Part shown: one piece after another, positions 2,756-22,272 of the stretch
Layout of the letters: every line of letters begins with the position of its first letter
Numbering within the stretch: the stretch's first letter is position 1
DNA from: Candidatus Electrothrix yaqonensis
GTDB taxonomy: Bacteria > Desulfobacterota > Desulfobulbia > Desulfobulbales > Desulfobulbaceae
Assembly (NCBI GenBank): GCA_047651235.1
Contig: CP178758.1
Location: 2,220,001-2,252,000 of the forward strand
Direction of reading: 5' to 3'
Length of the DNA stretch: 32,000 bases
Position numbers and translations under genes: made by a program
The notes under the pieces: model-generated
Seen by the model: the letters and a program-made list of their open reading frames with translations, nothing else
Database searches by the model: none
What the model was told of the DNA's origin: nothing

Positions 2756-2898
2756 TGCATGTCCTCCCTGTAAGGATTTATAGATATGAGGAATTACGTT
2801 AAAACTTTGGATTTTGGTTGTCAAGGGAAAAGAGGGTGATGAGGTGCTGAAAAGGGCAGGGCGGGGTAAAGTTAGGCGGATTCTGGGTTGGAGGGAGG
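2742..2898. repeat. copy 1 of a ~157-bp duplicated promoter/leader cassette
   Basis: Aligns with 3168..3324 at a constant 426-bp offset and roughly 80% identity. On the minus strand it contains TTGACA (2819-2824), a 17-bp spacer and TAACGT (2796-2801), then an SD and ATG. Confidence 0.8.
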
Positions 2899-2944
2899 AA
2901 ATGCTGTATTTGCGAACGGCAATGCAGAGATCAACAGAGCCGCG

Positions 2945-3106
2945 TTATTTTTTTTTCTGCGATTGTGACTTTTTTTGGCGTTTCTGCATGGCATCTGTTC
3001 GATGCCGCCAGAATTCCAGCTGTTCCTGCACTGACTTGCCCTCAATTAACTGCCTGATATGTTCAGCACCGCGCCGCTTTAAAAGGACACATTCAGGCTC
3101 ACGCAT
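2945..3106 (-). CDS. 53-aa small basic protein (antitoxin-like, hypothetical)
   Basis: Below the ORF-track cutoff. Sequence MREPECVLLKRRGAEHIRQLIEGKSVQEQLEFWRHRTDAMQKRQKKSQSQKKK. Its ATG overlaps the TGA of the 24-codon ORF upstream (ATGCGTGA). Confidence 0.4.
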   Translation of the reverse strand: MREPECVLLKRRGAEHIRQLIEGKSVQEQLEFWRHRTDAMQKRQKKSQSQKKK

Positions 3107-3173
3107 TCTTGCTCTGTTTCCAAGAGTTATCCTTCATTGCCTGATAGCCGGGCTGGGCCTTGTCGTTGGGCAT
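3099..3173 (-). CDS. 24-codon leader-like ORF driven by cassette copy 2
   Basis: Sequence MPNDKAQPGYQAMKDNSWKQSKNA*. The start codon sits at the position equivalent to the ATG of the copy-1 stub. It could instead be the frameshifted 5' part of the 53-aa ORF. Confidence 0.25.
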   Translation of the reverse strand: MPNDKAQPGYQAMKDNSWKQSKNA

Positions 3174-3324
3174 TGCACGTCCCTCATGTGAGAATTTTAT
3201 AGACAAGAGGAATTACGTTAAAACGTTGGTTCTTGCTTGTCAAGGGAAAAAACGGGTGGTGAGGTGCTGAAAAAGGAAGGGTTGGCCTGGGTAAAGCTGG
3301 GCGGCGTCTGGGTTGGAGGGAGAG
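3168..3324. repeat. copy 2 of the ~157-bp duplicated promoter/leader cassette
   Basis: See copy 1. TTGACA (3238-3243) and TAACGT (3215-3220) are conserved on the minus strand. Confidence 0.8.
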
Positions 3325-3378
3325 GCGGGCTGGGTAAAGCCAGGAAGTTTTTGGGTAGAGGCAGGGCTTGTCTGTCTT

Positions 3379-5349
3379 TTATGAGTCAGGTTTTTGCTGA
3401 ACAGAGTGGGTTCGGGCCAAGTATTCCAGGAGTTGTTTATGGATGAAGTGGTAGCTCCCGCCGACCCGTTGCAGGATTTTGCGGTGATGGAGGAATTCTA
3501 GCCAGTTGATGAGGCGGAGAGGGAGTTGGTCCTCTTGCCAGAGGAATAATCTTACTAAATAATGTCTAATAATGGTAATACTTCCGTAAGAGACGATGCT
3601 AACAAAAAGCATAAGGAAAAATACCGCATAAACAGATGGTTCCTGCATGTTGTTCACTATTTGACATCCAGTGTATTTAGCAGATTCTATAGCTTTAAAA
3701 TAAACAAATGCTGCGGTTAAGCTAGTAAGTGGAACAAGAAAACAACCATTAAGGCCAGCATAAAAAAGCGTTTGATAAGGGCTTACTGTTTCTGGAATGG
3801 AAACGTTAAGGTTTCTGCTGGCACGGATTAATGCGAAAATTACTACGCAAGACAACCCGTAGGCTAATGAACCAAAGGCTATAAGTCCAACCAGTCCGCC
3901 AATAATCAAACCAAAAATTATTCCCTCCAATAGTCCCGATAAAACTTTTTTCCAATCATAGAGAGTAGAAGGATAGCCTAATCGTATTATTTCATCCTGC
4001 TTTACAACTTGCTCATCTCTTAGGAGGACATATGCCATCCAGAGTGGTATAATCCTTAAACCAAATGCTGAGTTTAAAAACGACATAATAATCAAGCCGA
4101 GTGGAATCCCGCTTAATAAGCCGTAACTTACCTTGAATTTCCAAATATGATATAGACAGTCTGGATGTAATTCATCAAGACGAAATTCTACTTTTCCCTC
4201 CGTCTTTATCCTGTTTGCTAAACAATACAGCCAACGAATTGAATGGTCTTTGCTATACTGTTTCCAGTATTTCTCCGATCCATTCTTCTTAGATGGTGTT
4301 TTTTTCTTCAGACAATAATCAAGATAAAGCTCCCATAACCGATTTTCCGCCTGTTTTCCCCTTCGCAACCCTTCATCTTGGCTCAGACTTCTTTCGTTTT
4401 CCAGCGTCAGCATAATATTGAGAAAAAGAGGCCGCCGAGCAAGCTCAAACAGACTGCTTTTCTTTCCCTGCTTTTGCGACTGCTGCAAAAAAATCCATAA
4501 GCCGTAAAGCTGCAACCGCTTGAGATAACCCTCTAGCTTCTTTTCCGAGATATCCTGCAAAATGACCGCATGATTCAAGTCTACTTTTTTCTGCAAGCGC
4601 CGATACTCCTCAAGCCGGCAGCAGACCACCAAGGAACGACCCGTCTGAAACTTATTAAAGGCTTGGACAAATTTATCCTGCCTACTTTGTAGTAATTCAT
4701 CTAAGCCGTCAAAAAGCGGAAAGATGACCTCGTCCCGCACAAGTTCTTTAGCCAGCTCTTCTTGCAAGCCTCGGTAGTTTTTACTGAGTTGACGGCCCAT
4801 CCAATCAACCAAGTCCTTATCGTCCCACTCTGAACACTCAAAAATCACCGGCAAGGATTCTTGTTCTTCTTCCTCGGCCCGCTTTAGCAAATGGTCATGT
4901 AGCTGTAAAAGAGAGATAGTCTTACCGCTTCCCGGTTTTCCCAGGATAGCCAAACGCTCGCCGCTTTCTTTGTCTTGGAAAATGTCGATAATACTAAGGT
5001 CGGTGACTTGGGGAGCACGGCCTTCCTGCTCATAAAGAATATCCCGCAGGGAATGGGGCCGATCAACTTCATGGGGAGAGAGTTTCTTTTCTAAATCTAA
5101 TGGGGTACGTTCATCCAGGAGGGAGGACAGGCGAAGGTCTAGGTCATTACGGAAACGTTTGAGGAGCTGCTGACGAAGCCTTGGCGGGCAAACAGAGAGA
5201 TCATTATCGGTTTCTTTTTGGGAGGAGGTAGTGTTTTTTCGGGAACGGAAAAGAAGCCAGCCCAGTATAGGAAGCCCGACACCGCTAAGAATCCACTCCC
5301 ACGGTTTAGCTTCCACAAACGATTGCCAAAATTGTCCAAGCAGCTCCAT
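3379..5349 (-). CDS. NACHT-domain STAND NTPase with 1 N-terminal and ~6 C-terminal transmembrane helices
   Basis: Walker A is LAILGKPGSGKTISLL and Walker B is VIFPLFDGLDEL. The tail GGSYHFIHKQLLEYLA resembles a NACHT winged-helix ending. Hydrophobic stretches include WILSGVGLPILGWLLF and GIIFGLIIGGLVGLIAFGSLAYGL. The gene is visibly more AT-rich than its neighbours. Confidence 0.85.
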   Translation of the reverse strand: MELLGQFWQSFVEAKPWEWILSGVGLPILGWLLFRSRKNTTSSQKETDNDLSVCPPRLRQQLLKRFRNDLDLRLSSLLDERTPLDLEKKLSPHEVDRPHSLRDILYEQEGRAPQVTDLSIIDIFQDKESGERLAILGKPGSGKTISLLQLHDHLLKRAEEEEQESLPVIFECSEWDDKDLVDWMGRQLSKNYRGLQEELAKELVRDEVIFPLFDGLDELLQSRQDKFVQAFNKFQTGRSLVVCCRLEEYRRLQKKVDLNHAVILQDISEKKLEGYLKRLQLYGLWIFLQQSQKQGKKSSLFELARRPLFLNIMLTLENERSLSQDEGLRRGKQAENRLWELYLDYCLKKKTPSKKNGSEKYWKQYSKDHSIRWLYCLANRIKTEGKVEFRLDELHPDCLYHIWKFKVSYGLLSGIPLGLIIMSFLNSAFGLRIIPLWMAYVLLRDEQVVKQDEIIRLGYPSTLYDWKKVLSGLLEGIIFGLIIGGLVGLIAFGSLAYGLSCVVIFALIRASRNLNVSIPETVSPYQTLFYAGLNGCFLVPLTSLTAAFVYFKAIESAKYTGCQIVNNMQEPSVYAVFFLMLFVSIVSYGSITIIRHYLVRLFLWQEDQLPLRLINWLEFLHHRKILQRVGGSYHFIHKQLLEYLARTHSVQQKPDS

Positions 5350-7924: not shown

Positions 7925-8560
7925 TACCACAACACTAAACGACTCACCGCCTGAAAGTCGGTGGGTTTATAATTGCGGACTGAAAGTCCAGCTGTACCGG
8001 CAGGCTTCGCAGCCGGTTGGTGTTATCGTTCAACCTCAAATCTGTCATTCGGATTACGTTCAAAATGATGAGCCGGATATTCATCAATCATGGCACGCGG
8101 CAATTCACCGGCAGTGACGCAAAAATATCCACATGCCCAAAAATGACGGCCCCAATACCGCTTTCGCACATGAGGAAATTCCTCGAATATCTTTCGGGAC
8201 GTTCTCCCTTTCACCCGTCTCATAATATCCGGTGGTGCCGAAACCAAAATATGCACATGATCTTTATTGACTACGCCCCGCAAAATTTGGATCTCGAAAT
8301 ACTCACAGGTTTGACGAGCAATATCACGTGCCCGCTCGGCAAGATCACCACGTAGAATATGATAACGATACTTCGTTACCCAAACAAAATAATACTCTAT
8401 TTTATACTTGGGAACGGGAATTAATTCTACTTTGGCGATCATAAACATAACTAGCTTATTTTTATTAAGTATTTAAAAACCCCTGTTTTTAGCATTGTTA
8501 ATATTATTAAATAGTTAATGGTATGGTCACCAAAGTAGAATTACTTTGAGGGTGATCCCG
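7925..8560 (-). mobile_element. IS200-type element (tnpA only) with subterminal hairpins
   Basis: tnpA is flanked by three hairpins at ~7935-8010 and a long hairpin at 8526-8557 (TCACC-CAAAGTA gaat TACTTTG-A-GGGTGA). The element ends are approximate. Confidence 0.6.
8023..8448 (-). CDS. tnpA: IS200/IS605-family Y1 (HUH) transposase TnpA
   Basis: Carries YYFVWVTKYRYHIL, the HUH motif DHVHILVSAPP, and the Tyr region RHFWACGYFCVTAG. Appears intact. Confidence 0.85.
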   Translation of the reverse strand: MFMIAKVELIPVPKYKIEYYFVWVTKYRYHILRGDLAERARDIARQTCEYFEIQILRGVVNKDHVHILVSAPPDIMRRVKGRTSRKIFEEFPHVRKRYWGRHFWACGYFCVTAGELPRAMIDEYPAHHFERNPNDRFEVER

Positions 8561-13671: not shown

Positions 13672-14592
13672 TTAATTTGTTAGCTCCAACGGCTTTGAAA
13701 CAGTTGAGATAAGCAGTTCAGCAGTTGATGGCGGAAATACTCCTTGCTTAACTTTTCTGTTGAGATAGTTAGGGAAATGTTTAGGAACATAATGCTCATA
13801 AAACCATATTCTGAATTCGCCAAGAGCTTTTATAGGATACACCCACACATCGACTGGATTAACAACAGATTGAGGGAACCAGTCAGGATAAAGATGCGGG
13901 TGTTTTTGACGCGCTCCATACTCTTCGGAAAAATTATTCGCATTCCAGAATTTACCCCATATCTGGCCTACGCTTATGTCAGGTACGGTATGATCATCTA
14001 TCGGGATACCACCTTGAATCATATGGATAACAAGATCGGCCAGTTCTCTAAAAATTGAAAAATATCCAACTGGTACTTGGTCATTTAAAAGCACTCTTTC
14101 ATGAAAATTCTTCCACGAATCAGGTATAAATTTATTCGGATCGTAACCGCACCGGTTGTAAATGAAAGTGCGAAATGAAGTTCTTGCAAGTAGTCTGTAG
14201 TTCAATAAAGCAGTTTCGTTTGCACCTTGTTCTGTTTCAAATGCGTAATATTCGAGTATAGCCATGCAGACAGAATCTGTATAAGCATGTACCTCTGTAC
14301 CCTTTTGGGTTATTTGTATATACAGAGAATCGTTATTATGCCCTTGCGCGCTTAAAAGCTCAGATATCTTTTTCCCACGAGGTTTTCTTTTTTCTGAAGG
14401 CCAATTTTTCGCCAGTGACTGAAGTGTGGCGTTATGTATGCCACATATTTTTGCAAGCCCTCGCATTGTTAGATATGGTGTCCCGTCGCTTAAAACCCCC
14501 ATAGGAATCCCGTCAACTTCAGCCTCCTTTACCGGGAAAAGGTTAAGCTGTATGGGGTGCTGATCATTCTTGCCTATTGCTTTAGTATTCAT
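13672..14592 (-). CDS. 306-aa hypothetical protein with an N-terminal HTH-like segment (low-GC island cargo)
   Basis: Long clean ORF in an AT-rich segment. GTPYLTMRGLAKICGIHNATLQSLAKNW looks like a phage antirepressor-type or HTH N-terminal module. I cannot assign the Trp/Tyr/Pro-rich C-terminal half. Confidence 0.7.
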   Translation of the reverse strand: MNTKAIGKNDQHPIQLNLFPVKEAEVDGIPMGVLSDGTPYLTMRGLAKICGIHNATLQSLAKNWPSEKRKPRGKKISELLSAQGHNNDSLYIQITQKGTEVHAYTDSVCMAILEYYAFETEQGANETALLNYRLLARTSFRTFIYNRCGYDPNKFIPDSWKNFHERVLLNDQVPVGYFSIFRELADLVIHMIQGGIPIDDHTVPDISVGQIWGKFWNANNFSEEYGARQKHPHLYPDWFPQSVVNPVDVWVYPIKALGEFRIWFYEHYVPKHFPNYLNRKVKQGVFPPSTAELLISTVSKPLELTN

Positions 14593-15709: not shown

Positions 15710-17095
15710 TTAGAGGCAGGGCTGCGGCACCTGTATTTCTTCATCATCCAGCTTGTTGAGCAGCAGACCGGTCATGATCTTGGGATAGAAATAGGTGGAT
15801 TTATGCGGCATGATGGTGTTGCTGTCCGCCACCCTGAGCACCTGTTCAACCTGGGTGGGATTGAGGAGAAAGAGCAGCGGCGTGTGGGTATCCTGGAGCG
15901 CATTTTCCTTGACGACCGCATCAAGGGCTGCATCTGTATCGCTCAGATAGCGGACCAGCTCTTCCCGGACGCATTGCTCGTGGCTCAGGCCGAGATAGTC
16001 GTCAATGAGCAGGTCGGACAGGACAACCACATCAAGGTCTCTGAGTACTTCAGGTTGCTCCGCCAGGGCCTGGGCAGCGTTGACCGCCTGTCCGTCCACG
16101 GCAAGGAGAAAGGCCCGGTCTTCTCCGGCGTGATAGACCCCGAAGGTCAGAACACCGGCACCGCCTTCCGCCTCCTGCATCTGCTCCAGGGTTTCGGCAA
16201 TCAGGGTTTCTCTACTTCCCTGGCTGACCTCGGTGACGTGTATCCCCAAAGCCAATTTCTCCTGCAGCTGATCCGCTGTCATCACTCCCGGCCAGCGCAC
16301 CAGCCGGTGAGTGGGCAGCACGGACAGACCCTGATCCTCGCAGGCGCAGAGGTACATCATGATGTAGTTGCAGGGATGCTCCTCCGGCAGCTCGGGATTA
16401 CGGGCCAGAGCGCGTCTGCGGCAGTCCAGAGCCGTGGTGTAGCGGTGATGGCCGTCAGCGATATAAACCGATTTTTCTTTAAAAAACTGATGCACTGCAC
16501 AGAGCGCCTCTGCATCGGTTGCCCGCCAGAGGGTATGGAGATTGGCATTCTGATCCTCAATCCGGAGCAGCGGTTCCGGCTCTCGAACCTTTTCCAGTTT
16601 GCTGATCACCTCCTGTTCAGGGTCCGAGTAAATGGAAAAAACCTGACTGAACTGGGCTCTGCAGGTTTCCATGAGCTGCAGCCGGTCACTGATCACTCCG
16701 GAAAAGGTCTTTTCATGCGGCCTGACAATGCCTTCGGCAAATTCAGCCAGCCCGACCAGCCCGACAATCCCCTTGCGGGTCAGGCGGTGCCCGCCTGGAT
16801 GATTATATTCAATATAATACAGATAGATGGCAGGATGCTGGTCGCGAATCAGCACGGCTTCATCCTGCCAGGCCTCAAAGCGGGCACGGGCCTGTTCGTA
16901 GCGACCGTTATCTTCAGTCTCTCCCTGGGAAATGTTGCACAGGTCCAAGTTAATCATGGAATAGGGATTCTTTTTGACCAAGTTTTCCGCATCATCAGGT
17001 GAAATAACATCATAGGGCGGGGTAACAACGTCTTCCAGGCGGGTGATTTTCTCCAGGTTGTAACGCACACCTCGAAACGGGGCAACAACGGCCAT
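15710..17095 (-). CDS. DUF1015 family protein
   Basis: N-terminus MAVVAPFRGVRYN...VTPPYDVIS is the family signature as I recall it. GGAGAG SD upstream. Confidence 0.9.
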   Translation of the reverse strand: MAVVAPFRGVRYNLEKITRLEDVVTPPYDVISPDDAENLVKKNPYSMINLDLCNISQGETEDNGRYEQARARFEAWQDEAVLIRDQHPAIYLYYIEYNHPGGHRLTRKGIVGLVGLAEFAEGIVRPHEKTFSGVISDRLQLMETCRAQFSQVFSIYSDPEQEVISKLEKVREPEPLLRIEDQNANLHTLWRATDAEALCAVHQFFKEKSVYIADGHHRYTTALDCRRRALARNPELPEEHPCNYIMMYLCACEDQGLSVLPTHRLVRWPGVMTADQLQEKLALGIHVTEVSQGSRETLIAETLEQMQEAEGGAGVLTFGVYHAGEDRAFLLAVDGQAVNAAQALAEQPEVLRDLDVVVLSDLLIDDYLGLSHEQCVREELVRYLSDTDAALDAVVKENALQDTHTPLLFLLNPTQVEQVLRVADSNTIMPHKSTYFYPKIMTGLLLNKLDDEEIQVPQPCL

Positions 17096-17346
17096 GGGAT
17101 TCTCTCCGGATTAGGTTGGGATGTAAATGAAAATGAAAAAATATCTGCTGTTTTCCGGGCAGCCCGGAAAGCGGTCGTGGAGTGTTCCGTCATCGTCATT
17201 CAGGCGGTACTGCCTTGTTCAGGCATTGTTTACCATTATCCGGTCATGAGATGCAAGCAGGTTTTGGGGCTTTTATCTTGCGCCGGGCTGAACAGGGCCG
17301 GAAGGCCGGGAATATCAGCCTGCCGGAAATGCTGTTGGAAGGCATA

Positions 17347-17870
17347 GGAACGGGAATTAAATAACTACGGGATTCAAAGCCGTCCTGACGGAACAGCGGC
17401 ATAATTCCACTTCGGCAGAAACTCGTCGAATTGAATTTTCATATTTTCTTTAAAACCGTCAGCCGTTTTGCGGCCTGTCTCGAAGAGGAATTCAGATTTT
17501 CCATGTGTCGTCCACCAGTTCCGAATACAGGCGCACCCGAACTCGGAGGTGTCACCGCTTGTCCCTAATGTGATATAACCGATATTACTGTATATATCAT
17601 ACAGTCCATAGGCGAACCCGCCGTGTGTTTTTTCAGCACTGCGAAAAATGCGTCATCAAGATCGACGGCGGTCGAGAGGACGGATTTACGTCCCCCGCCC
17701 GGTTTGCGAATTCGTTCTTCTTTTTCAGACAGGCTGCCGTAAAAATTACGCATTCGCGTTTCTATCTCAGGAGAATATGTCTTTATCTTCATAACCGGAT
17801 GAGAATAAACGCAACTATGAAATTGTCAATGACCTGTCAGCAAGTTCCGTTGTTATTAAATTTTCATTCC
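17347..17870 (-). mobile_element. non-autonomous ISAzo13-derived element, copy A (524 bp)
   Basis: The imperfect terminal inverted repeats GGAACGGGAATTAAATAACTACGG and GGAATGAAAATTTAATAACAACGG match at 19/24. Internal relics of an ISAzo13-type transposase are present (ERIRKPGGGRK..., CACIRNWW..., ...FLPKWNYAAVP), with large internal deletions. Confidence 0.8.
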
Positions 17871-18057
17871 TAAGCACCACCTCGGCAGCAGGTTTGATCC
17901 GGGCTACCGCATCAACAAAACGGGACTCGGCCTGCTCCGGTTCATCCTCCCTGCCCCGCGCGATACGCTCCATGCCCTGCTGTTCGCTTATCTCTGTTTC
18001 GACATATACTGGCTGACCGTCCAGCTCAAATTCAACGAGTTTTTTCATGTTGTTCAT
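17815..18057 (-). pseudogene. Trypco1-like (CU044_2847-like) small protein, 3'-truncated by element copy A
   Basis: AGGAGG SD precedes MNNMKKLVEFELDGQPVYVETEISEQQGMERIARGREDEPEQAESRFVDAVARIKPAAEVVL. This matches my recollection of the N-terminal half of trypsin-co-occurring domain 1 proteins. From 17870 downward the frame reads IS sequence. Confidence 0.5.
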
Positions 18058-18094
18058 GGTATTCCTCCTAGTCTGGATTGACGGATGCATCTGA

Positions 18095-18427
18095 TCAGAC
18101 AGTGATATATTCTTCTTTTATCATGGTATCAATAAAATCAAGGACAAACTGCCGTTGGTTGGGTGTGGCCCAGTCAATGCACGAACAGCGGATGTTATTG
18201 GAACTGCGCACGAGGAACTCAATACGGATTTCTGTCTTTTCCAAGAGAACGGTAAAATAGAACGGCCCGCAGTCCGGGTGATTCAGCTGGGCCAGAGCCA
18301 GCAGCTCCCGGGGCACCTCAAGCCAAAAAACACCGTCCATAGGTCCGGGCTTCAGGGTTCGTTTGAGATAATTGTCCAAGTTGTCATGTTCCAAAAAAGA
18401 AAGTTCATCGATTACATACTGGCGCAT
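18095..18427 (-). CDS. 110-aa hypothetical protein (cargo gene 1)
   Basis: Starts MRQYVIDELSFLEHDNLDNYLKRTLKPGPMDGVFWLEVP and ends ...IRCSCIDWATPNQRQFVLDFIDTMIKEEYITV. It stops 37 nt before the next gene's start. No family recognised. Confidence 0.55.
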   Translation of the reverse strand: MRQYVIDELSFLEHDNLDNYLKRTLKPGPMDGVFWLEVPRELLALAQLNHPDCGPFYFTVLLEKTEIRIEFLVRSSNNIRCSCIDWATPNQRQFVLDFIDTMIKEEYITV

Positions 18428-18557
18428 AGTCGGATATCCTGTGGCAAGCTGATAAAAAAAGAAAAAAAATAGGCCAGAACGGAGTGTGACCTTCTCAAGT
18501 TGCATTATGGTACATTATGATATCATGAAGCCCTGTATCTGTTTATGCAACAAGTAA

Positions 18558-19088
18558 GGAACGGGAATTAAATAACTACGGGATTCAAAGCCGTCCTGAC
18601 GGAACAGCGGCATAATTCCACTTCGGCAGAAACTCGTCGAATTGAATTTTCATATTTCATATTTTCTTTAAAACCGTCAGCCGTTTTGCGGCCTGTCTCG
18701 AAGAGGAATTCAGATTTTCCATGTGTCGTCCACCAGTTCCGAATACAGGCGCACCCGAACTCGGAGGTGTCACCGCTTGCCCCTAACGTGATATAACCGA
18801 TATTACTGTATATATCATACAGTCCATAGGCGAACCCGCCGTGTGATTTTTCAGCACTGCGAAAAATGCGTCATCAAGGCCGACGGCGGTCGAGAGGACG
18901 GATTTACGTCCCCCGCCCGGTTTGCGAATTCGTTCTTCTTTTTCAGACAGGCTGCCGTAAAAATTACGCATTCGCGTTTCTATCTCAGGAGAATATGTTT
19001 TTATCTTCATAACCGGATGAGAATAAACGCAACTATGAAATTGTCAATGACCTGTCAGCAAGTTCCGTTGTTATTAAATTTTCATTCC
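18558..19088 (-). mobile_element. non-autonomous ISAzo13-derived element, copy B (531 bp)
   Basis: Direct repeat of copy A with 6 substitutions and one 7-bp internal duplication. Confidence 0.8.
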
Positions 19089-20318
19089 ATAGTATTGAAA
19101 CATGGGGACATCCGACCATTGCTGCACAGCCTTTTTCGCGTATGTATGCAGGAGGGCAAATTCAAGCATGCGCTGCCAGATCTGGCAGAGCATGACCAAC
19201 TCATCTTTATGAAAAGCAAGACCACTGCCTTTTTTCAGATACGGCAGCAGAGCGGCACGTACCCCTTTCCAGGCCGGAAGTTTGTTGCCGTTACTGTCTA
19301 TAAGACTGGTAGCGATCTGCAACAACTCGTCTTTTTCCGGTTTATTTGTGACAGCCGCCTTCAGGTCGGCCGTGAATTTCTTTTTCCATGACTGCGGCAT
19401 CGGCAGCAGTTCAGCGTCCATACAGACCTGAAAGCGGGCAACAGCCTGATGTTCATACCGTTCCGATCCTTTCTCCAGCAGGGCCTGCCCTTCTTTTTCC
19501 TCATCCTGGATCAGTTTGATCAGCCCCTGGTTGATCTCTATCCTGCCCTGATCGGCACCTCCCCGGGCAAAGGCGGATGCATGATCACATTCTTTGCAGG
19601 CCAAGGCGTATTTCTCCTGATTGACCAGTTTCTGCGCATGATTGATATGCGCCCCGATAAGCAGTTCCCGTACCTTTGTGTTGATAGGATCAATTTTAAG
19701 GAGATCCCGGGCAAGACGGCTCGCCTTTTTAAAGGCGCCGCGCCTGACTGCCGCTTCAGCGCCGAGAAAGAGAATATCCGGTTCTTTCGGGAAATGCTCC
19801 AGCATTCTGTTCACCCAGCGGTACTGCTCGGCAGGAGCCATATGCAGCAGCTGATGCATTCTGAGCCAGGTCGCCTTGTCGTCCGGATCATAGCTCAGAC
19901 TCTTTTCCAGCTCTTCCCGCTGCTCCCGCCAACCGTATTCATCACCCTGTATCATGCTGATCAGCGCAGCAGTATGCCGATGGATCATGGCGATCTTCAG
20001 CGCATCAGCCGGATTTTTTCTCTTGGCAAGTATCCGGCAGGCCCGTTGCCACATTTCCGGAATCTGATACGACTCATCGTCTATCTCCAGAGCAAGGGCC
20101 TGCAGGTGGGCATTTTCAAATTCGTCCTCAATCGGGCCGAATCGTTTTGCATATATCCGGTAATACGAAGGATCATGAACAAGGAGCTGGCAGCATAAGC
20201 GCTTGAGTCGGTTAGGGGCAAGGCAGTTGCCCGCATTGAGCAGGCTTCGTAAAAAACCAACCGGGGTGGCTGCATTTTTTTCCAGCAGGCTGATCAGCTT
20301 ACCTTTCTCCTTATCCAT
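19074..20318 (-). CDS. 414-aa helical-repeat (TPR-like) protein, 3' end replaced by IS sequence
   Basis: Long ORF. The last codons (...YY GMKI*) are encoded by the end of element copy B. Confidence 0.65.
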   Translation of the reverse strand: MDKEKGKLISLLEKNAATPVGFLRSLLNAGNCLAPNRLKRLCCQLLVHDPSYYRIYAKRFGPIEDEFENAHLQALALEIDDESYQIPEMWQRACRILAKRKNPADALKIAMIHRHTAALISMIQGDEYGWREQREELEKSLSYDPDDKATWLRMHQLLHMAPAEQYRWVNRMLEHFPKEPDILFLGAEAAVRRGAFKKASRLARDLLKIDPINTKVRELLIGAHINHAQKLVNQEKYALACKECDHASAFARGGADQGRIEINQGLIKLIQDEEKEGQALLEKGSERYEHQAVARFQVCMDAELLPMPQSWKKKFTADLKAAVTNKPEKDELLQIATSLIDSNGNKLPAWKGVRAALLPYLKKGSGLAFHKDELVMLCQIWQRMLEFALLHTYAKKAVQQWSDVPMFQYYGMKI

Positions 20319-20761
20319 CCCCTGCAGAAGCTGAAAAACTTTTTTTCCGTTATGCTGATATCCCTCGTTTCATCCCTCTTGCCCTTTTTCCTTCCCCCGG
20401 CATCTTCCAGCACATGAAGATACGGTGAAATCAGGGTGAAAAACGGAGAATCCGCCTCAACCTTGGCAAAGAAGGGCCGGGCCTTGCCCTGTCCCTTATG
20501 AAAAGCAACCATGCCTTTCAGGGCCATGCGGAAATTCTTGTACGGTGAGCGGAAGGGGATATGCTGCAGGGATTCCAATACTTCGCTGCCCTGTGCATAA
20601 CAACGCAGGGCCTTTTGTGCATGGACGAGCTGGCAACGTACAGGGGCATCAGGCGCGAATTGTTTTTCAAGCACAGTATTGCCGCTGAGCAGCAGGGCGG
20701 CAAAGGCTTCCTCAACCCGCTGTTTCTCCTGCCCGGTCAGGGTATCTTTTGTTTTTTTCAT
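20294..20761 (-). CDS. 155-aa hypothetical protein (possibly the 5' part of 19074..20318)
   Basis: GGGAG SD upstream. Overlaps the next ORF by 25 nt next to an A7 tract (20340-20346). Confidence 0.5.
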   Translation of the reverse strand: MKKTKDTLTGQEKQRVEEAFAALLLSGNTVLEKQFAPDAPVRCQLVHAQKALRCYAQGSEVLESLQHIPFRSPYKNFRMALKGMVAFHKGQGKARPFFAKVEADSPFFTLISPYLHVLEDAGGRKKGKRDETRDISITEKKFFSFCRGWIRRKVS

Positions 20762-20783
20762 AGATCTCCCGAGCCTTGTCCGC

Positions 20784-21122
20784 CTATTCGGCCTGCATCA
20801 GCAGGAGAATGTGCATACCCTGCAGGGTTGCTGTTTGCTCAGGCAGCTGCGCCTCCATGTTATGAAAAATAACAAGGGCTTCTTTATACATGCCTTTGAC
20901 TGCCAGCTGGTTGATGCGCCCCTGAAAAGAAGAGCGCAGCGGTTCTTCCCATTGTTGCTCTTTGCTTTCCTGCAGCAATCGACGAAACACCTTGATCGCA
21001 TCGGCAAATTTTTCCTGATCGAGATAGGCCTGCCCGGCGTTCGGCAGCTCATTCATCGGCAGATGAGATATGGATGTGGTTTTGTTTTTTCTTCTTTTTT
21101 CCTGAGATCGTTTCTTTGCCAT
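20784..21122 (-). CDS. 112-aa TPR-like hypothetical protein
   Basis: I start it at MAKKRSQEKRRKNK... (ATG 21122). A single TPR-like unit is visible: AGQAYLDQEKFADAIKVFRRLL. Confidence 0.5.
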   Translation of the reverse strand: MAKKRSQEKRRKNKTTSISHLPMNELPNAGQAYLDQEKFADAIKVFRRLLQESKEQQWEEPLRSSFQGRINQLAVKGMYKEALVIFHNMEAQLPEQTATLQGMHILLLMQAE

Positions 21123-21327
21123 GTTCCTGTTGCACCGTGTACGGAAGGGGTGACTCAAGAAATGTCGTTTTTTCTGTTTGTCCCGTTATAACCTGCTGTT
21201 CCTGCTCTGGCAAGGGGACAGAATTCATCCCGGCCCGCAAATGGCATCTGATGATCTTCAACAGGCAGGGTGGATGGCAGCAGGGCACAGAGAGTACAGG
21301 TAAAATTGAAAAAGGATGTGCTTTTGC

Positions 21328-22272
21328 TCAGTTCTTCTTTTCCTGAAAAATATCCGGAAAACGCTGCCGGAAATCCTCCTGCAGGGGAATCATCACTTCC
21401 CGCATGGACGGCTCTGCGGCTCTGGTTGTGCGCAGACTGAAAATATGCCGCCATTCCTCCAGATTGGCGTAGACGATCAGTTCGGTCTTGCAGGAGTTGG
21501 GCAGGACAGTGCGGGCCGCCTGTGGGGTGGAGGTCTCCAGCAGCTTGAGGTAGAGCTGTTCTGTCTCCAGCATGGCCTTTTCCCAGAGCGCATATTCCGG
21601 GCTGCCCTGGGTAAAGAACATGGGCCGGATAAAGGTGACCTCGCTGCCGAATTTATCGTCGCTATACCTGCAATAACGTTGTGATTCCTGGAGGAAGCTG
21701 CATATCCTGTGGCGCACGATCTCATGCGTCACTGCCCGGTTGACAATAAACTTGACTGCGATGTATCGGTGAATCGCCAGCCTGTCCGGCGGAAGCCGAT
21801 CTACCTCGTCCAGTTCCACCTTGCGGATACGGATTGCCGGGTCCCGGGTCAGTCCTGCTTCCGGCAGAACGCTGCTGAAAAAATATGGATGCCGGTCATT
21901 GAGCAGAGCACAGGCAGATCGGACAAGCGCATTTTCTGGATGCCGGACAAGCAGCTCCCGGAAGGTACGGATACTGCCGGTGAGCAGCAGCCTGCTTTCC
22001 TCCCGGTCGATATACAGATGTTTTGGCTGGCAGAGAAATAATTCAGTGACTGCGCTTTCCTCGGTGCGCTCCGCCTCCAGGGTGACCACACCCATCTCCA
22101 GAACCGAGTTATGGCCGTGCTCGGCTATCTTGCGGACAAAGGGAATAGCGGAATCCCGGTCAATCCGGTCTTCACTTTTATAACAGACCCGACCGCAGCG
22201 CTCGATGCGGACGGCAAGGCTTTTCCGGTCAAGGGAATCAAGGATTTCGTATGAAGGGTCGATAATTATCAT
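21328..22272 (-). CDS. thyX: FAD-dependent thymidylate synthase
   Basis: Carries the ThyX motif RHRICSFLQESQRY (RHRxxSxxxxSxR) and a downstream ARTVLPNS...WRHIFSLR region. Confidence 0.9.
   Translation of the reverse strand: MIIIDPSYEILDSLDRKSLAVRIERCGRVCYKSEDRIDRDSAIPFVRKIAEHGHNSVLEMGVVTLEAERTEESAVTELFLCQPKHLYIDREESRLLLTGSIRTFRELLVRHPENALVRSACALLNDRHPYFFSSVLPEAGLTRDPAIRIRKVELDEVDRLPPDRLAIHRYIAVKFIVNRAVTHEIVRHRICSFLQESQRYCRYSDDKFGSEVTFIRPMFFTQGSPEYALWEKAMLETEQLYLKLLETSTPQAARTVLPNSCKTELIVYANLEEWRHIFSLRTTRAAEPSMREVMIPLQEDFRQRFPDIFQEKKN

Follow-up and report, generated by a model that had tools for sequence, protein, structure and literature searches.

The locus studied here lies in a 32,000-nucleotide stretch of the Candidatus Electrothrix yaqonensis YB6 chromosome (contig CP178758.1, positions 2,220,001 to 2,252,000; hereafter the window, whose own numbering is used throughout) and consists of two directly repeated, shortened insertion sequences (IS) of the ISAzo13 family, copies A and B, which bracket a 687-bp cargo. 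On the left stands a DUF1015-family gene with its upstream region and on the right a TPR-like gene that is cut short by copy B (Table 1). Read from left to right, the copies and their flanking triplets follow the order ATA-A-TAA-681 bp-TAA-B-ATA. A preliminary description of the window had taken this layout for a single insertion into the TPR-like gene. We compared the junctions with related loci and lean, without great assurance, towards a reading in which the IS pair marks breakpoints of synteny in a mosaic of three chromosome segments that arose through exchange of flanks.

Table 1. Features of the IS pair and its flanks in the window.
Feature	Position	Strand	Remarks
DUF1015-family gene	15710-17095	minus	PF06245, E=2.3e-87; left neighbour of the IS unit, unrelated to the TPR-like gene
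Conserved block upstream of the DUF1015 gene	17220-17267	minus	85-88% identical to L037 7866-7907 and L039 7876-7923
Outer left flank ATA	17344-17346		Non-canonical triplet; A at -3 in 0 of 26 other ends
Mini-ISAzo13 copy A	17347-17870	minus (transposase relics)	524 bp; left inverted repeat (IRL) is the end at 17870 (ISfinder convention)
Cargo, 687 bp	17871-18557		Bounded by canonical TAA triplets
Inner flanks TAA	17871-17873 and 18555-18557		Canonical targets
Trypco1-like gene, 5' fragment of about 63 codons	17871-18057	minus	PF19493, E=2.9e-5, profile positions 5-53 of 98
Complete 110-aa gene	18095-18427	minus	403 homologues, nearly all of 110 aa, Desulfobulbaceae
Mini-ISAzo13 copy B	18558-19088	minus	531 bp; 7-bp TTTCATA duplication and 4 derived substitutions
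Outer right flank ATA	19089-19091		Native TAT codon of the TPR-like gene; TAC TAT kept in 3 of 3 orthologues
3'-truncated TPR-like gene	19089-21158	minus	About 678 of about 775 codons; three open reading frames (ORFs) through frameshifts at A7/A8 runs

Copies A and B can be aligned end to end as direct repeats and differ by 6 substitutions (window 17562, 17569, 17628, 17661, 17662 and 17781) and one 7-bp indel, a TTTCATA that is duplicated in B. Both are bounded by 24-bp terminal inverted repeats, GGAACGGGAATTAAATAACTACGG and the reverse complement of GGAATGAAAATTTAATAACAACGG, which are identical at 19 of 24 positions; a search of the 32-kb window returned these ends at the four element termini only, with a chance expectation of 0. 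The frames of the transposase relics match the ISAzo13 models PF07592 (E=3.9e-17) and NF033519 (E=7e-18 and 4e-8), scoring under the whole-protein cut-off solely because the gene is fragmentary, and every reading frame through the element is closed. The preliminary description had reported the repeats with their differences and imperfect inverted ends, the outer ATA and inner TAA flanks and a shredded ISAzo13 transposase, and on all these points our analysis agreed with it, the last being borne out also by a four-block alignment with a complete relative. No further copy of the mini-element beyond A and B was found in the window, and no third IS end near the start of the TPR-like gene (21150-21330).

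Relatives of the element were obtained by scanning genomes, metagenomes and viruses with a degenerate pattern of its ends. The scans gave 4 genome loci and 20 metagenome loci, mostly in Electrothrix or Desulfobulbaceae assemblies, and 0 viral loci; the mini-element of A and B itself was not among the 24 loci. The complete relative, of 1322 bp with both ends (locus L003, 97-1418), aligns with the window element in four blocks (element positions 1-140, 444-551, 918-1038 and 1177-1322), and relative to it the window copies are short of about 790 bp through three internal deletions. Another (L031, 559-1881), 99% identical to L003, is without the last 11 bp of one end and has an intact transposase frame of about 405 aa; the L003 transposase is frameshifted in an A9 run, which is A10 in L031. 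Over the four blocks the two are 84-94% identical to the window element. As judged from these alignments, copies A and B derive by deletion from an ISAzo13-family element of 1.3 kb and are non-autonomous, and their transposase would have to come in trans, a full-length element having been sought in the window and not found. An element of 157 bp (L025, 1749-1905), also returned by the scans, shares the inverted ends, is flanked by a perfect TTA/TTA duplication and resembles a miniature inverted-repeat transposable element (MITE); thus the IS group has given rise to very short non-autonomous derivatives.

Both the transposase homology and the terminal inverted repeats assign the window copies to the ISAzo13 family. 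They resemble its full-length relatives (1322 bp, a single transposase of about 405 aa, inverted repeats and a 3-bp target duplication) in matching the family models, and differ from them in the missing sequence, in encoding no transposase and in that neither copy has a matching duplication of its own, A being flanked by ATA/TAA and B by TAA/ATA. Unlike flanks around a single copy usually point to flank exchange or to paired movement. Like MITEs and other non-autonomous ISs, the copies are short (524 and 531 bp), keep intact inverted ends, have no functional transposase and were presumably moved in trans; unlike classic MITEs, they keep recognisable transposase fragments and are thus internally deleted ISs. 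Compared with the outgroups L003 and L031, copy B is derived at 4 sites and in the 7-bp duplication, and copy A at 2 sites. Since each copy has private derived changes, they are not fresh duplicates, as recent replication would have given identical copies, with the caveat that short-read polishing within repeats could introduce some false differences between A and B (PMC12093952).

The proposed 3-bp length of the target duplication was supported by the relatives, with TAA/TAA around L003 and TTA/TTA around L025, and agrees with that reported for the ISAzo13 family (PMC10045372). An element boundary shifted by one base, with the A…T counted into the ends, was ruled out by the same flanks. To describe the target, we used 26 independent other ends, read inward to the IS. 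Position -4 was C or T, -3 was T and -2 was A or T at all 26, and -1 was A at 24; the triplets were TTA (14), TAA (10), TAT (1) and TAG (1). The target of this IS group is the near-palindrome Y-TWA-R, of which the central TWA is duplicated. No mention of this preference for ISAzo13 was found in the literature searched. As TAA or TTA adjoins 24 of the 26 other ends, the matching inner triplets, which the preliminary description had read as a sign of a cointegrate, follow from target bias and need no cointegrate; two ordinary insertions would yield matching TAA/TAA about half the time. Target bias had also been put forward as a possible source of both matches, and it accounts for the inner TAA and not for the outer ATA, a type found at 1 of the 26 other ends.

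Virtual removal of 17347-19091 lets a 410-codon ORF of the TPR-like gene read on past its ...FQYY through 35 more codons, as far as the stop at 17236-38. The open frame of the preliminary description was therefore reproduced; its interpretation as the lost end of the gene was not sustained. Shuffling of the flank gave at least 35 open codons in 25% of cases, and the flank has another frame without a stop over 32 codons, so that the 35-codon frame is no better than chance. A search with the reconstructed 445-aa protein returned orthologues of 773-775 aa with 68-73% identity, in all of which the shared ...F(Q/K/T)YY is followed by a conserved stretch of about 95 residues (I/L-V-VGKS..GKKRLT...AMRQKDSATE.LID.FL...FFELFGD). 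Protein comparison found no similarity between this C-terminus and the predicted 35-aa tail (AFQQHFRQADIPGLP...), an outcome that the preliminary description had itself set against its proposal. At the DNA level, homology between three orthologous loci and the window begins at 21149, breaks off exactly at 19089 and never resumes: after TAT the window reads GCCTTC and the orthologues CTCATT, CTTGTT and ATCGTT, which are unrelated to it. A continuation of the gene to the left of copy A was sought by local DNA alignment of 17096-17346 with the orthologous 3' ends and downstream regions and rejected, the score being in the shuffle range. These data contradict a single insertion of about 1.75 kb into an intact TPR-like gene. 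The gene is indeed truncated by copy B, but it is not simply split, as the two flanks are non-contiguous in orthologues.

In the three orthologous loci (L007 10001-14722, L008 10001-15312 and L009 3420-7477) the genes that come after the TPR gene encode a small J-domain protein, GrpE and an Hsp70 of 597 aa. Together they seem to form a dedicated TPR-DnaJ-GrpE-Hsp70 chaperone cluster, conserved in Electrothrix and related loci; DnaJ, GrpE and Hsp70 genes were sought in the 32-kb window and none was found. What is left of the TPR-like gene is read as three ORFs (21158-20784, 20761-20294 and 20318-19089), with two frameshifts at about 20340-20360 and 20760-20770, both in A7/A8 homopolymer runs of the coding strand, which could be true pseudogenisation or residual Nanopore errors.

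The left flank has an origin of its own. The conserved block at 17220-17267 has counterparts about 100 nt upstream of the DUF1015 gene in Electrothrix Rat3 and GW3-4, with no TPR gene near, and covers the end of the predicted 35-codon tail, its last codons and stop included. Because this block includes the stop of the tail, the left flank is the native 5' region of the DUF1015 gene; together with the orthologous C-terminus and the shuffles, it refutes the restored TPR ORF. The short-read contigs L005 and L006, which are independent, both contain the left junction (DUF1015 upstream region-ATA-IS end) with 100% identity and both break inside the IS, as expected for a multi-copy repeat. The block itself, of about 45 nt (CCAAAACCTGCTTGCATC...CCGGATAATGGTAAACAA), is conserved and the remaining intergenic DNA is not, and it may be a promoter or regulatory site; an Rfam scan of the window gave no match.

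Between the copies, the fragment of the Trypco1-like gene is preceded by a ribosome-binding site (AGGAGG at 18064-69) and is cut by copy A at a TAA site. The 110-aa gene gave no match to Pfam or NCBIfam, and a homologue is annotated as a PilZ-domain protein by one source. Its native neighbours in Electrothrix GW3-4 and other genomes include LysM and 293-aa genes on one side, as well as PilZ, GyrB-like and PriA genes, and none of these was found in the window. The closest relative of this cargo gene (95% amino acid identity, L040) has no IS and no homologous flanks. Exact-protein look-ups returned no record for the 75-aa relic ORF or for the 110-aa and 136-aa cargo ORFs. As it holds a conserved chromosomal gene next to a truncated one, the cargo is a scrap of ordinary chromosome and not an accessory module. 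The remainders of the two truncated genes, TPR-like and Trypco1-like, were not found in the 32-kb window. We also considered that the Trypco1-like gene might continue across copy A through a 2-bp TA duplication (…VVLMPSNSISGRL…); the frame is open, judged by eye alone to be unlike the rest of the Trypco1 domain, and the 3-bp duplications of L003 and L025 contradict this.

Three segments are thus joined at this locus, namely the DUF1015 gene with its native upstream region, the 687-bp scrap and the first approximately 678 codons of the TPR-like gene, and they are neighbours in no relative. In relatives neither outer flank continues the other, and no native neighbour of the TPR-like gene, the 110-aa gene or the DUF1015 gene is present at the junctions. 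The block did not simply interrupt an intact TPR gene. We infer that the mosaic formed in several steps. Mini-IS copies, mobilised in trans by a full-length element, would have entered the Trypco1-like gene, the DNA upstream of the 110-aa gene and the native TAT of the TPR-like gene. One or more IS-mediated rearrangements, by homologous recombination between dispersed copies or by IS-adjacent deletion, would then have swapped or deleted flanks, removing the 3' end of the TPR-like gene and bringing the DUF1015 region beside copy A. The left ATA would derive from a second non-canonical target and its match to the right ATA would be coincidental.

Several observations weigh against the mosaic. 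ATA is a rare, non-canonical target type (1 of 26 other ends), and a chance match of the outer ATA/ATA is unlikely: two independent ATA insertions in matching orientation have a joint probability near 1e-3 (rough estimate), compared with about 0.04 for one duplication giving ATA/ATA, which favours a single event by a likelihood ratio of about 25-50. Moreover, the outer flanks when joined give C-ATA-G, with one mismatch to the C-TWA-G consensus. The mosaic also requires several events, the synteny argument leans on distant relatives (the nearest TPR orthologues are just 68-73% identical), and our evidence covers the 32-kb window and the loci of relatives, outside which the predicted counterparts of the junctions (TPR 3' end-ATA-IS as well as IS-TAA-Trypco1 3' end) would lie.

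The outer triplets would be accounted for by a compound transposon, in which the 1742-bp block moved as a unit through its outer ends, served by an ISAzo13 transposase in trans, into a C-ATA-G site at a previously rearranged junction of the TPR-like and DUF1015 genes. At the donor locus, the TAA sites to the left and right of the cargo would each have received a mini-IS copy in a separate insertion, and both the truncated genes at the cargo edges and the divergence of the copies are what two founding insertions would leave. Two ISs bracket a passenger here, both outer ends are intact, the same rare ATA stands at both ends of the unit within a near-consensus CATAG if the -4/+4 bases are included, and a 3-bp duplication is typical of the family. 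The block is thus built like a compound transposon and could be mobile in that form. Nevertheless, removal of the unit restores no contiguous target in the comparison with orthologues, which included no close strain, and neither a second copy of the block nor an empty site (uninterrupted TTGGAAGGCATAGTATTGAAAC) was found in the scans. Any route that produces ATA/ATA in a single step, by a compound transposon, a cointegrate or a translocatable unit entering a resident IS, works only if the DUF1015 upstream region and TPR codon 678 were already adjacent. This implies an unrelated earlier breakpoint in the TPR-like gene, at most about 3 nt away from where the insertion later took place, for which we roughly estimate a probability of 1e-3 or less. 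For the flank-exchange route, the replacing flank needs to carry ATA by coincidence, at about 0.02-0.04. The flank-exchange mosaic is therefore favoured a few-fold over the route through a pre-rearranged junction, not decisively, and we regard the compound transposon as a doubtful explanation that still deserves real weight.

The direct orientation of the copies with matched outer ATA and inner TAA is formally the structure of a cointegrate. It would result from replicative fusion of a circle of one IS and the cargo with the chromosome at ATA, or from attack on the TAA of a cargo circle by an IS that sat in the chromosome at ATA; either event would duplicate the IS. Behaviour of this IS26-like kind, if true, would be new for ISAzo13. 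However, the inner pair is expected from target bias, the copies are non-identical (6 sites and the indel) with private derived changes in both, which argues against a recent replicative origin, a 684-bp circle is no replicon, and the non-contiguous outer flanks are as much a problem here as for the compound transposon. Replicative or translocatable-unit behaviour of ISAzo13 was not found in the literature searched, and we consider this origin very improbable. Only slightly more credence goes to the wider proposition that ISAzo13-family elements, even as defective copies, can build and move IS-passenger-IS blocks in an IS26-like manner through cointegrates or translocatable units, with the ATA/ATA as duplication and the TAA/TAA as scar of the circle, or that identical triplets on non-contiguous flanks are left by a rearrangement coupled to transposition. 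An error of assembly or polishing, whereby a multi-copy repeat was mis-joined or mis-polished, might explain the layout or some of the A/B differences. The YB6 genome is closed and was assembled from Nanopore reads with Flye and polished with Racon and Pilon, including one short-read round, and short reads map ambiguously in repeats (PMC12093952); in addition, the neighbouring TPR-like gene is frameshifted at A7/A8 runs. The repeats of about 0.5 kb are, however, far below Nanopore read length, the left junction is exact in the two short-read contigs and the IS ends are clean at all four junctions, so that we give an artefact hardly any credence.

In the compound transposons Tn5, Tn9 and Tn10 two IS copies bracket a passenger segment. 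The block in the window resembles them in its intact outer ends and in the identical 3-bp triplets around the whole; it differs in that its passenger is a gene scrap without obvious selectable function and that removal of the unit restores nothing contiguous. With the pseudo-compound transposons of IS26 and the IS6 family (PMC7986276) it shares direct IS copies around a passenger, a likeness of geometry only, as it belongs to another IS family, its copies are non-identical and its inner flanks are explained by target preference.

Elsewhere in the window, the intergenic region at 2777-3365 contains several families of direct repeats (60, 46 and 37 nt; 83-87% identical) that come back about every 420 bp, which suggests a tandemly duplicated unit of about 420 bp. 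Between ORFs, at 8419-8546, two arms of 35 nt form an imperfect inverted repeat (80% complementary) around a 58-nt spacer. To the left of the IS pair are also a gene for a NACHT-domain NTPase (3379-5349) and one for a 306-aa protein (13672-14592) that has a precomputed BstA_C match on contig L005 and gave no match at E<=1e-4 in a Pfam scan. The chromosome may be variable or defence-rich in this region.

The locus represents ordinary IS-driven scrambling of the genome of a cable bacterium and leaves the knowledge of transposition unchanged. It is a worked example of how matching triplets and a short open frame can mimic a clean compound insertion, which checks of orthologues and synteny overturn. 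Of further use are the findings that the Electrothrix subgroup of ISAzo13 targets Y-TWA-R and duplicates TWA, and that it has non-autonomous derivatives of 524-531 bp and, on a metagenome contig, of 157 bp. For strain YB6, it means that a conserved TPR-DnaJ-GrpE-Hsp70 cluster was broken by IS activity at about codon 678 of its TPR gene.

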